NCBI GenBank assembly: GCA_030615175.1
Contig: JAUWZX010000001.1
Span: 346,029 to 410,028 of the forward strand
From: Candidatus Parvarchaeota archaeon
GTDB lineage: Archaea; Nanobdellota; Nanobdellia; WJKC01
Direction: 5' to 3'
Length of the DNA: 64,000 bases
Of this stretch, positions 12,001-15,000 are shown one piece after another. A program made the position numbers. Numbering within the stretch: position 1 is the first letter of the stretch; every line of letters starts with the position of its first letter.

Positions 12001-15000
12001 CGGAATCTGGCTTAGTATTAATATTAATCCAATACTCGCAATTAATAATCCGAACGTTAATGTCTGAATAACCGCTAAGTCGTATAATGCTTCATTAGTC
12101 TTCTGAAATATTAACACGTTGCCAGCAATGAATAAGGCAAAGCCAATGAATAATAATAATCTGAATAAATTAACATCCTTCCTTGACATATCTTTATTAA
12201 GGATTGTTATCCCAGCACCTGCTAGTAATGAAATAACTATTATGAGCGCGTTTATTAATGAGTACTCCTCTGATTCAATGAAACTGCTTATTAAGAGATA
12301 AAAAATTATTGCCATAAGGGTTATCATTGACCCTCTAACTAAGTGCGAGCTGATTTCCTTCATTAATTAATTATTTAATTAATAAGTAATTATTAATCTT
12401 TCTTTTTGAATTAATAAGTAATCATTAATCTTTCTTTTTGAATTTCTTGAATAATTTTTCCCAGTCAATAATTACTATTAGGAAGATTAGTAGTATGGTA
12501 ATTATTAGTGTGATATTGCTTACTAACGGATTCTGAGTGCTCACTGCAGTGCCGTCAACTATTTTTAGGCCGTAAAGGCTTAGCACGAATTGCCCTGCAG
12601 GGAATGCTTTTGCAATTACTGAGAATCCTGAGACTGTCATTGTCATGGCTACTTTGCCAATGAACGCCGCTGTTAATGACTTCTTTAATGAGTACTTGGC
12701 CATGCCTAAGGCAATGAGTAAGATATCGTCTGGTAGTGGCGTTGCCGCGAAAAGTATTATTAATGGGAATCCGAAACCCTTGCTAATTAACGCTTTTAAG
12801 CCCTTGATATTCTTTGATAACATGCCTTTCTTCTTGTCTATTTCAGCAATCTCTCCAGCCCCCCTGCCTATCAGCCACGCGCTTAACTCGCCAATCGCAG
12901 CCCCGAGTCCTGCGAATAATCCGATTATTAATGGATTAACTGGCAGCATTATTATTACGCTTGCAAGCGCTAGTAAGTATGGGACTGGAAGTATTACTGT
13001 GAAGTTGCCAATAATGCTTAACAGGAATATTGCGGTGTAAACCCCTATTTCCCCGAATGAGTCATAATACTCTTGAGTGAAATTAATCATTAAACCTGCT
13101 AAGTCAATGTTTAATGTTAGAAATATTATGATTCCAATTATTATTCCTATTACTCCTACAATTATTAGTGCTCGTTCGTATTCCTTCTTCATGCTAAGTA
13201 CCCTGCCATTATTGGTAAAGCAATTGTTGCGTCGCATAATACTTCAACGCGTTTTGCTTTTTGATTAATCTTACCCCAACTAATGCCTTCCCTTAACTCA
13301 GCGCCTGATAATCCTCCAGGGCTTGGAGTGTCAGTTGTTATTTGCACTGCGTAACTGGCATTTTTCGGCGTGAATTGTAATGCTTGCATTATGTGATTCT
13401 TCGGCACTCCTCCTCCAATAATTATTATTCCTGCTTTCTTAGCAGTCCATGCTAAATCAATTATTTCTTTTAAGTCCTTGAATTGGTTTATTCTTATTTC
13501 CTTGTTCAGTGCTAATTGTATTCCCAGCCCGCAGTCAGTGAATGCAGGGCAGAATATTGGCACTTTTTTTTTGGCTGCAGTCCTCATTATTGAATTATCA
13601 TCCTTTAACTTTTTACCCAAGAACCATATGAATTCCTTTACACTCATTCCTGAACTGAACTCCAATCCCTGCACGAAGTCTTCCATTGCCCCGTATACTT
13701 CGTTGTGCATGTAAACATCATAGATTCTGTTAAACCCTTTCTTGCGTAATTCCTTATCGCTTGCCTGACTGTCCCCTTGCAAGTGATGATAACCAAGTGC
13801 TTCTGCTAAGTCATGAGTTAAGTTAGCACCAGTAGTTACTAAAACGTCAATGTATCCTTTGTTTATCCAGTCCCTTATTATTCGCCTCATGCCTGCTGGA
13901 ATCATTGCACCAGCGAGTCCGAAGAACTTTCTGCACTCAGAGTCTTTTATCATTTCTTCATAAATCAAACAAGCCTTTGCTAAGCGCTTGCCGTTAAACC
14001 CTGTATCTTTCATTAGATTAATAATTCTTTTAATACTGGCTTCTTTAGGAATCCTTATTTGATTGACATTCTTCATTAGAATAAATTAATTAATTTGATA
14101 TTTTTAAATTGTTCCAATTGAGTTAATCAGTAATTCAAGATTTTTGTGAAACTTTTCATCATACTTTTTCAACTTCTTGTACTTATCATGCCTGCCAGCA
14201 TGAGTGCACGCGTATAAGATTCCACTAATTATTAATGGAAGTGAAAGTCCTATGAATATTGGCCAGCATTTTTCAGGACTGTATGTAAGAAAGCTGCAAC
14301 CAATTAAGAAGAATGGCACTTCCTCTATCACTGTGCATAAACTAGGGCCTTTCCAACTTTTAGTTTTGCTTTTAAGATGACAGTAATACTTGCTGTAAGA
14401 GTTTTTAAGGTAATCATTTAAGGATGCGGAGTCCCCGTTACTGTATAATTCTTCACTACGCGAGTCTAATGATTTTAATAATTTATTATGTCCCTTGCTC
14501 TTTATGAAACTCTTAAGGTGCTTGTAATCCATGAGAATTTGAGTTATGCAAATTACTTATAAACTTTTGCATCAAAACCTTTAAAAACCCTCATTAATAC
14601 TTATTTAATTGCCACTGTGTCACCCAACACAGGAAGGACTTCTTTATTGAAGTCCTTCTCATTTTTTTTTAATAATAGAAATCCTTAAATAATCTCATGT
14701 TCATTTTAATATTTGCCAGCGGCCATAACTTAAGTGGCAACACCTGATCCCATTCCGAACTCAGAAGTTAAGAACTTAAGTGTTATTGTGTGTACTGCGT
14801 AACACGCGGGAAATCAATAAGTTGCTGGCATTTCATTTTTTTTTCCGTCAACGCTTTTTCTAAAAGGGTTGCGCGGGAAATCAATAAGTTGCTGGCATTT
14901 CATTTTTTTTCAAGGATTAAATTAATTAAGTTTCTGAATGCCTTTTTCACGTTCTCGCCTGTCATTGCTGACGTTTTATAATACGCTTTAATTTCTTCTT

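Follow-up and report, generated by a model that had tools for sequence, protein, structure and literature searches.

A hairpin mini-element of archaea that probably moves and gives rise to tRNA introns, as seen from an insertion at a 5S rRNA gene

Family 1, a group of short hairpin sequences occurring in many archaeal lineages, is very probably mobile DNA from which introns arise. In the window, i.e. the whole 64,000-nt stretch of DNA that was analysed, one copy sits at the 3' end of an intact 5S rRNA gene between two copies of a 39-nt direct repeat (Table 1), and the first-pass annotation was right to call this repeat perfect. The hairpin comprises a 4-bp foot, one mismatch, a T/A stem, a short loop and the conserved ACGG-A4, with its fixed end at 14871; repeat copy 1 adjoins the variable, or tail, side, where the A-run of the element and the T-run of the target overlap. 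Folded as DNA, the + strand of this element gives -6.7 kcal/mol (z -3.9) and the - strand -3.7 kcal/mol (z -1.4). Repeat copy 2 contains the stop codon of a convergent ORF, small-GTPase-like judging by its motifs, which the duplication leaves intact. The whole genome holds 21 exact repeats of at least 17 nt with a spacing within 110 nt, the longest being that at the 5S gene; five of them flank these elements (four flagged by a regular expression, the eL42 one read by eye), and in 15 of the remaining 16 the period is a multiple of 3. A contig from run X4 links unique 5S sequence to the element (14790-14869) and one from run X5 links the element to repeat copy 2 (14853-14901), so that both junctions are crossed and the insertion is not an artefact of one assembly.

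Table 1. The 5S rRNA locus and the insertion it carries, in window positions
Feature	Position	Strand	Remarks
5S rRNA gene, intact, insertion target	14715..14830	+	Rfam RF00001, 73.6 bits, model 1-120
Repeat copy 1, 39 nt	14805..14843	+	5S nt 91-116 plus T-run
Hairpin mini-element of family 1, 28 nt	14844..14871	-	32 nt if counted from 14840, with the shared A-run
Repeat copy 2, 39 nt, displaced 5S 3' fragment	14872..14910	+	joined to the hairpin's fixed end
Convergent ORF, 177 aa	14900..15433	-	small-GTPase-like, read from motifs

In this genome family 1 numbers 14 copies (18 fuzzy matches, less two of a sibling family and two chance matches), in agreement with the 13 plus C5:70267-70310 reported earlier; the other coordinates reported with them were checked as well. 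Eight copies are tRNA introns, six in T-loops (three Leu, Ile-TAT and two Ser) and two, identical to each other, in Pro(TGG). The other six comprise two without a duplication and four between duplications of 12-39 nt, at the 5S gene (39 nt), the ThiI/permease ends (19 nt), eL42 (30 nt exact) and Val-CAC (12 nt). A second family has seven copies, all between duplications, three of which are perfect (32, 24 and 12 nt) and four imperfect (read by eye); a fixed-length pattern found family 2 in this genome only among 301 genomes of the class. The T-loop intron of tRNA-Tyr (C1:79176-79356) does contain a G/C hairpin, but its resemblance to family 2 is only loose. The GC skew of C5 showed no clear origin that could bear on the question of a replication-strand bias.

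Mobility is indicated by empty orthologous sites. The 5S site holds a single copy of the 39-nt sequence in all three relatives compared (G001, G002 and G003), and sites are likewise empty at the ThiI/permease end in G001 and G002, at the eL42 start and the Rpo5 end in G002 and G003, and at the Val-CAC 5' end and the Ser-GCT T-loop in G001; with the query used, mbhJ had no match in the three relatives, nor eL42 in G001. Some sites have been struck more than once: the Rpo5 3' end by family 2 here and, in G001, by a different hairpin that has a repeat of 26 nt; tRNA-Trp nt 12/13 by family 2 here and by family 1 in G002; and the T-loops of Ile-TAT and Ser-CGA by independent insertions of different hairpin families. 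Together with duplications about 24-fold above the null and a patchy spread over distant archaeal lineages, the empty sites bear out the view of a non-autonomous mobile mini-element. The contrary view, that these are terminator-like or protein-binding hairpins of local origin, whose repeats arose when replication slipped at the hairpin, has next to no probability, even though the stem is simple and T/A-rich, most copies lack duplications and many lie at gene ends. It is largely refuted by the pairs of filled and empty sites; moreover, hairpins occur inside tRNA loops, slippage would repeat the hairpin together with its flank, and an exact 24-base pattern is present in distant lineages, with 0 matches to the reversed control in 401 genomes.

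The exact family-1 pattern returned only archaeal titles among the 80 loci listed. A collection of 250 distinct copies, not all of them independent (L016 and L198 are orthologous, and five rows of the tRNA-fragment comparison come from one genome), includes 62 sense tRNA introns. Long duplications flank 24 of the 250, as against 3/748 cross-paired and 2/243 shifted controls, and in five of these 24 the repeated sequence belongs to neighbouring elements and not to a target; 164 of the 188 non-intron copies have no detectable duplication. The first-pass annotation had each non-tRNA copy flanked by a long, variable target duplication, which describes 11 of the 13 non-intron copies here but not the family at large, where such duplications exceed the null yet form a minority and introns carry at most 0-2 duplicated nt.

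The unit is an imperfect hairpin of 27-50 nt followed by ACGG-A4, with a foot that is paired in 226/250 copies and falls into four covarying types. The end at the hairpin foot is fixed, whereas at the opposite end there is a tail that varies from 0 to 100 nt and in which the excess of A fades after about 8 nt. Duplications measure 0-2 nt in introns and from 11 to more than 40 nt at other sites. The joins of the fixed end fall within genes, on either strand, and loops of tRNA, rRNA and RNase P genes are very frequent sites (rRNA and RNase P placements were read by eye). At the ends of tRNA and 5S genes, a tally by eye gave about 28 cases with the fixed end inside the gene, 9 sense with a 5' duplication and 19 antisense with a 3' duplication, against one clear opposite case.

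It looks as if one process makes both the long-duplication insertions and, at its short-duplication extreme, the introns, as the mostly complete bulge-helix-bulge (BHB) helices of the latter and a 2-nt lead-in suggest. A predicted central helix of 4/4 pairs is present in 34 of 43 anticodon-loop introns, compared with 15.5% in the cross control and 4/172 shifted windows; eight of the 43 have three pairs, and the inner helix is often weak (0-1 pairs in 23/43). The element begins 0-2 nt past the 5' splice site in 38 of these introns, and the 2-nt lead-in repeats nt 38-39 in 7/9 (permutation P 1e-4); the set of 43 leaves out L119 and L338, and in about five of its rows the start is doubtful. The T-loop introns of this genome form 3-4 of the 4 BHB pairs in 8/8. 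Helices predicted from sequence in both loops thus uphold the claim that tRNA insertions persist as BHB introns, splicing at these sites being predicted only. The genome has one EndA gene (PF01974/PF02778; best PDB match 3IEY_A), and the same two profiles found no second subunit in it.

Most tRNA copies, 65 of the 75 called as spliced, have the sense orientation, with their start at the splice site, and the element also lies in rRNA and RNase P genes, all of which would suit reverse splicing at the RNA level, whereby EndA/RtcB ligates excised introns into other RNAs that are copied back, with the non-tRNA copies as by-products. This route is very improbable, since it cannot yield long duplications or the antisense insertions in tRNA and 5S genes (the 19 cases, including the 5S one here); in addition, the non-intron copies have tails without a match among the intron tails of this genome, their longest match to the rest of the genome being 12-14 nt (Trp tail not included). 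With no match above 14 nt, the idea that the tails are flanks transduced from elsewhere in this genome was dropped too. As the sole route it is already contradicted by the antisense copies.

On balance we lean slightly towards a DNA-level mechanism, in which a gene-less ssDNA hairpin would be moved by a putative enzyme in trans and the outcomes filtered by selection. It is favoured by the insertions that lie antisense within tRNA and 5S genes and by DNA-type loops that show a strand bias. Among 182 distinct loops, C-GNA-G triloops number 24 on one strand and 1 on the other, C-GNNA-G loops number 14 versus 0 between the strands, and the RNA-type cUUCGg occurs once. GNA-type loops are stable in DNA and not in RNA, and they sit on the strand opposite the intron RNA; a literature search on GNA triloops found nothing relevant. 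The same two lines of evidence support insertion as DNA, one half of an earlier proposal. The other half, exit, found no counterpart in the form of an element-skipping joint among the contigs of four runs, which, as contigs break at repeats, says nothing on the absence of an empty allele.

Certain duplication edges speak against a DNA-level mechanism and would be simpler to explain with an RNA template: in 7/9 cases a 5' duplication begins no more than 2 nt from the 5' end of the mature tRNA, and that of eL42 begins at its probable leaderless start. The reverse transcriptase (RT) of a passing element might copy the hairpin RNA, e.g. an excised intron, from a 3' end at an RNA terminus, by target-primed reverse transcription (TPRT) or template jumping, making the element a minimal archaeal SINE-like one. 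A fixed end, an A-rich tail and a variable duplication are the TPRT layout, which the present elements may share, and both the position of the fixed end 0-2 nt from the 5' splice site and the duplication edge at the 5S T-run agree with it. Furthermore, differences between tRNA fragments and genes cluster at nt 56-58 (14 in 37 sites versus 3 in about 180 at 61-72, leaving out L252), in L201 too although its junction is 17 nt away, and methylated bases at these nucleotides would disturb reverse transcription. We nevertheless regard RNA templating as unlikely. Added CCA was seen in none of the 3' duplications listed, their edges run past the tRNA by 0-15 nt, the tRNA-Asn duplication is a promoter, and the DNA-type loops lie opposite the intron RNA; the RVT_1 profile (PF00078), which could miss divergent RTs, matched 3/20 carriers and 1/30 others (Fisher P 0.29) and nothing in this genome.

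A different origin of the repeats is suggested by genome G390, where the bases between T-loop and hairpin are common to the copies and unlike the local tRNA in four of five rows (L386, L394, L416 and L418), a pattern that weakens the reading of the repeats as true staggered-cut target duplications; four other rows have one common junction with a 1-nt insertion at 56/57. Here the element would bring the end of a tRNA or other gene from an earlier site, by an att-like or homologous crossover, often in the T-loop, and the "duplication" would be the incoming copy. The occurrence of one and the same intron in different tRNAs (Leu-TAA with Ile-TAT here, three in G042), synonymous differences in some coding duplicates (eL42 and C5:206074) and tyrosine recombinases in 41/50 genomes are in line with such gene-end replacement. 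It is all the same quite unlikely: one hairpin family has dozens of unrelated targets, each of which would require its own att copy, the perfect species-specific repeats of 19-39 nt (5S T-run, ThiI/permease overlap) match the local chromosome, PF00589 has no match in this genome (G000), and the 0-2-nt duplications of introns would be left unexplained. Integrative elements that target tRNA genes make att duplications and have been proposed as a source of intron gain; the passages of PMC3293823 on them describe, as here, duplicated tRNA 5' or 3' ends that keep the gene whole and breakpoints often in the T-loop. The present inserts, of 28-150 nt, differ in having no integrase or cargo between the repeats and many unrelated targets, protein genes included.

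According to the DNA-level mechanism, DNA would be the folded form, with T4-CCGT-hairpin as the strand on which it is read, and a strand-transfer enzyme that recognises hairpins, of HUH/TnpA type or similar, would act in a one-ended reaction, a few donor-flank bases sometimes travelling with the element. The loose end would be resolved by repair synthesis or recombination, and rejoining at or upstream of the break would repeat 0 to about 45 target bases and leave the tail. A gene-dense genome would keep only harmless outcomes, a step for which the present data give part of the evidence: either the duplication restores in full what was interrupted (a gene end, as in the 5S gene, a promoter, a ribosome-binding site or a stop codon), or a 0-2-nt duplication comes with a tail that by chance completes the BHB motif, so that the splicing endonuclease would remove the copy as an intron. 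Introns may afterwards spread between tRNA genes by homology.

It also counts against this mechanism that most non-intron copies lack a duplication and that no helper enzyme among those tried (RVT_1, Y1_Tnp, Y2_Tnp, tyrosine recombinase and Cas1) co-occurs with the element. Y1_Tnp was found in 3/20 carriers and 5/30 others, a small sample, and not in this genome; PF04986, the Y2 transposase of IS91-type rolling-circle elements, matched 0/50 genomes, but no positive control either. A genome was classed as a non-carrier by a single exact pattern, and sibling families may therefore be present in some of these. Clustering of 675 ORF fragments beside the 250 copies gave housekeeping or spurious clusters only, the three loci with the element on viral contigs had no mobility gene in common, and GenBank phages yielded chance matches only.

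The literature searched yielded no description of these elements. They are not MITEs of the DDE type, as terminal inverted repeats at both ends and a fixed-length duplication are both lacking; a triplex reading was considered and dropped. Integron attC sites have an invariant AAC/GTT core whose 3' part is supplied by the target, whereas CAC/GTG is present in only 38/250 copies and the foot is borne by the element and absent from the 5S target. Casposon or Cas1-driven integration was rejected on the distribution of Cas1 (0/24 carriers, 7/26 others). REP/RAYT hairpins are alike in being short, with a subterminal hairpin and ssDNA-type features. As a lead only, the T4/A4 hairpin superfamily may be related to the palindromic repeats of Methanocaldococcus jannaschii. 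The latter (Suyama et al. 2005, mentioned in PMC2229807) and the Rickettsia RPEs are likewise short palindromic repeats that enter genes, and they are set apart by description, since intron formation and long duplications are absent from the passages of PMC2229807 on them. The bacterial YPAL/RU-2 elements of Yersinia (De Gregorio et al. 2006, summarised in PMC2229807) are gene-less sequences of about 168 bp with internal inverted repeats and target duplications of 3-26 bp, in targets at or beside dyad symmetry. As far as that summary goes, they share with the present elements the lack of genes, internal instead of terminal inverted repeats, variable duplications, the association of targets with dyad symmetry and mobility read from empty and filled sites; the present elements differ in their size of 27-50 nt, the single fixed end, the variable tail, duplications of 0 to over 40 nt, targets inside tRNA and rRNA genes and the conversion of copies into BHB introns. 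PATEs, which share hairpins with IS605 elements and have archaeal examples down to 52 bp, are also short, without terminal inverted repeats, and have a subterminal imperfect hairpin, a conserved foot sequence and ssDNA-type features, in the passages of PMC3119063 devoted to them; paired feet and the conserved ACGG-A4 are found here too. HUH elements (IS200/IS605 and PATEs) make no target duplication according to the same passages, whereas duplications do occur here, and no such hairpin was found beside the TnpB gene on C4 or near 12 RT/Y1 loci, six of them Y1_Tnp (a small sample). As to introns, transposed tRNA introns are on record in Thermoproteales (Fujishima et al. 2010, via PMC4090602 and bioRxiv 10.64898/2026.10.13.758758); compared with these, as cited there, the present intron core is also found outside tRNA genes with a duplication, and across many lineages.

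A wider reading is possible, if doubtful: these hairpins may belong to an unrecognised class of archaeal mobile DNA, ssDNA hairpins of 30-50 nt in several unrelated families, exchanged between DPANN and larger archaea, moved by a putative enzyme outside the known transposase families and inserting into folded strands of tRNA and rRNA genes, with duplication and tail built during insertion, and may rank among the main sources from which tRNA, rRNA and RNase P genes gain BHB introns today. The elements explain tRNA genes missed by annotation in small archaeal genomes, and they point to a mobilising activity. An element seen in many archaea both as an insertion and as a spliceable tRNA intron offers a concrete route for the origin of archaeal introns, and because a single family, short and searchable by sequence, is seen in either state, as free duplication-flanked insertions and as BHB introns with a 1-2-nt duplication, intron gain becomes testable with a defined substrate.

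Two identical 39-mers, one at the end of the 5S rRNA gene, enclose a 28-nt hairpin of family 1, confirming the exact direct duplication reported in the first-pass annotation. In G001, of the same genus, and in G002 and G003, of the same family, the hairpin is absent and this 5S end is single-copy. Contigs of two sequencing runs, X4 and X5, each span the element and one junction, which shows that more than one assembly has the insertion; the empty form was found in none of four runs, as judged from contigs, which may not reveal it. This copy is of the antisense type with a 3' duplication, and its DNA folds better on the strand opposite the intron RNA (z -3.9 versus -1.4).

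Features discussed in the text, in window positions unless contig C1 or C5 is named
Feature	Position	Strand	Remarks
5S rRNA gene	14715-14830		Rfam match
Repeat copy 1	14805-14843		3' end of the 5S rRNA gene and its T-run
Repeat copy 2	14872-14910		Bears the stop of a convergent ORF
Coding-repeat array	1-1800		Repeat units of 84-87 nt, their period a multiple of 3; the product is probably a helical-repeat protein
tRNA-Arg(CCT)	60248-60394	-	72-nt intron, unrelated to the hairpins described here
Rpo5 3' end (L189)	C1:96307-96423		32-nt repeat
eL42 start (L187)	C5:1124-1243		GGTGA motif in the element tail, 7 nt upstream of the displaced start codon
tRNA-Pro(TGG) (L366)	C5:583367-583506		Intron identical to that of L198
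tRNA-Pro(TGG) (L198)	C5:588952-589091		5.6 kb from L366, small ORFs between
tRNA-Tyr	C1:79176-79356		Three introns, G/C hairpin in the T-loop one; missed by ARAGORN and Rfam

The studied genome, G000 (1.02 Mb, 5 contigs), holds 14 copies of family 1. Eight are introns, of which six lie in T-loops at 59/60 and the other two, identical to each other, in tRNA-Pro; four copies stand between direct repeats of 39, 30, 19 and 12 nt, and two have no repeat. Family 2 has seven copies, each within a perfect or imperfect repeat; the claim that non-tRNA copies are flanked by duplications thus held for all of these and for four of family 1, but not for the remaining two. Tails of 17-20 nt, present in six family-2 copies, contain a TATA-like run directed at the downstream gene; an outward promoter may be a feature of this family. 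Two further kinds of hairpin are present: a sibling of family 1, found both in a Ser T-loop and, with a 15-nt repeat, at the 3' end of uS10, and a third family, with a 13-nt repeat, at the 3' end of a tRNA-Pro. The two tRNA-Pro(TGG) genes resemble a duplicated whole tRNA at the borders of an island, despite which no tyrosine recombinase was found in G000.

Orthologous sites are empty in relatives: ThiI in G001 and G002, eL42 and Rpo5 in G002 and G003, and the Val-CAC 5' end and Ser-GCT in G001. G001 also has insertions of its own: Val-CAC has an antisense family-1 copy in its 3' half, and further insertions lie at Cys, Gln and Ala. Two congeneric species carry independent hits on the 3' end of Rpo5, each by a different hairpin family (L189 in G000; L227 in G001, 26-nt repeat). 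At its original start, eL42 appears leaderless.

Among 250 distinct copies with enough flank, those of G000 included, 24 have a flanking repeat scoring at least 11, five of which (L063, L107, L152, the second of L164, L277) are repeats of neighbouring elements. Since this exceeds the cross-paired (3/748) and shifted (2/243) controls, long duplications are real, yet limited to a minority, 24 of 188 copies outside the called introns. Mobile insertion, as claimed, is upheld by empty sites and by duplications above the null, whereas leaving again was not seen; loss of a copy via its flanking repeats is plausible. At tRNA and 5S ends, tallied by eye with five cases from one genome, G390, the element has its fixed end within the gene, its tail adjoining the gene end. 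Nine cases are sense with a 5' duplication (seven no more than 2 nt from +1, and four after nt 12), 19 are antisense with a 3' duplication overshooting by 0-15 nt, and one, L089, has the opposite layout. Selection among the outcomes is indicated by protein genes, where the duplicate restores a promoter, ribosome-binding sites or stop codons.

Cutting out the element restored a tRNA profile match in 75 of the 250 copies, 62 of them sense without a long repeat, in agreement with the proposed presence as tRNA introns. By eye, further contexts include more tRNA genes and those of 16S, 23S and RNase P RNA (L135, L314, L335, L343, L352), where the copies are probably bulge-helix-bulge (BHB) introns. 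Predicted pairing likewise favours the BHB character claimed for tRNA copies: of 43 distinct anticodon-loop introns, for which the anticodon stem was the sole basis of the call, 34 have four of four central-helix pairs and 8 have three (controls: 15.5% cross-paired, 4/172 shifted), while 8/8 T-loop introns examined in G000 have 3-4; the inner helix is often weak in the anticodon-loop set. The closest PDB entry to the G000 splicing endonuclease is 3IEY_A. The element starts 0-2 nt past position 37 in 38/43; a first lead-in base is the same as nt 38 in 19/25, and two-base lead-ins equal nt 38-39 in 7/9 (permutation P 1e-4; two rows orthologous). We read the lead-in as a putative micro-duplication, by which introns would share one process with the long-duplication copies.

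Pairing at the four foot positions is complementary in 226/250 copies and takes four covarying forms; ACGG-A4 comes after the stem, which has one conserved mismatch, and the loop varies. Of 154 copies, 84 have A as the base just ahead of the element, and the target shows no fixed word. Across 182 distinct loops, C-GNA-G triloops number 24 on the strand opposite the intron RNA versus 1 on the intron strand, C-GNNA-G 14 versus 0 and GNRA 13 versus 4, with cUUCGg once. GC-GNA-GC forms a very stable mini-hairpin in DNA, not in RNA, although the literature searched yielded no source for this stability. The loop bias favours a single-stranded DNA form, and one fixed and one loose end suggest one-ended transfer completed by repair; that the element would move by this one-ended DNA route is, in our judgement, just probable. 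Reverse splicing as the only route is excluded by antisense insertions inside RNA genes.

Two observations count against one-ended DNA transfer and fit other routes: 5' duplication edges coincide with the start of the mature tRNA, and points where the fragment differs from the gene cluster at tRNA nt 56-58 (14 in 37 sites versus 3 in about 180 at 61-72; doubtful row L252 left out). If insertion were templated by RNA, which we think rather unlikely, the cluster could reflect reverse-transcription errors at bases that are presumably methylated. Replacement of the gene end, a distinctly improbable route, would make it a true crossover point, and in G390 the hairpin-adjoining bases, shared among copies and unlike the local tRNA, favour crossover with carried sequence there. 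The cluster could also be scars of repeated T-loop cutting. The one-ended DNA, RNA-templated and gene-end routes may act in combination. A hint of fold-back synthesis comes from L164 and L168, where the duplicated tRNA start recurs in the tail, inverted and almost perfect.

Co-occurrence in carriers versus other genomes revealed no HUH transposase tracking the element, which counts against the one-ended DNA route, and no positive association with reverse transcriptase, Y2 transposase, tyrosine recombinase or Cas1. The last occurs in 0/24 carriers and 7/26 others (50 genomes; Fisher P 0.01, kin not being independent); absence of CRISPR adaptation may favour the elements.

An exact 24-base pattern matched 20/401 genomes of the class (reversed control 0), at least 117 loci in a species-genome collection and at least 123 metagenome loci, both samples and lower bounds, besides 3 viral loci. 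All titles among the 80 collection matches listed are archaeal, including Nanoarchaeota, Micrarchaeota, Aenigmatarchaeota, Altiarchaeota, Undinarchaeota, Methanophagales, Methanosarcinales and Thermoplasmata. A sibling pattern matched 12/151 genomes, with up to 19 matches in one. Of the viral contigs (L181, L182, L183), one copy adjoins a PolB-like gene and two terminase-like genes, by reading; viruses may carry family 1 between hosts. One genus (G127, G184, G068; L369-L371, L387, L393, L396, L058, L061) combines high copy numbers with few duplications, and many copies are antisense, 1-4 nt upstream of a start codon, for which a hairpin arm could serve as ribosome-binding site.

The element lacks the defining features of MITEs, integrative elements, casposons and PATEs, although it resembles PATEs in look, as far as the accessible part of their description goes (PMC3119063). 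Closest in working is YPAL, with variable duplications, an internal inverted repeat and targets at dyad symmetry in the portion available (PMC2229807). By predicted pairing, the intron copies would qualify as BHB introns; they parallel the transposed introns of Thermoproteales, whose mechanism is called unknown in the part of the source consulted (PMC4090602). The open literature searched held no description of this element, and such repeats might stand in supplements. It is real, mobile and widespread, a kind of gene-less hairpin mini-element apparently undescribed in print, and is notable because it links target-duplicating insertion with BHB intron gain.
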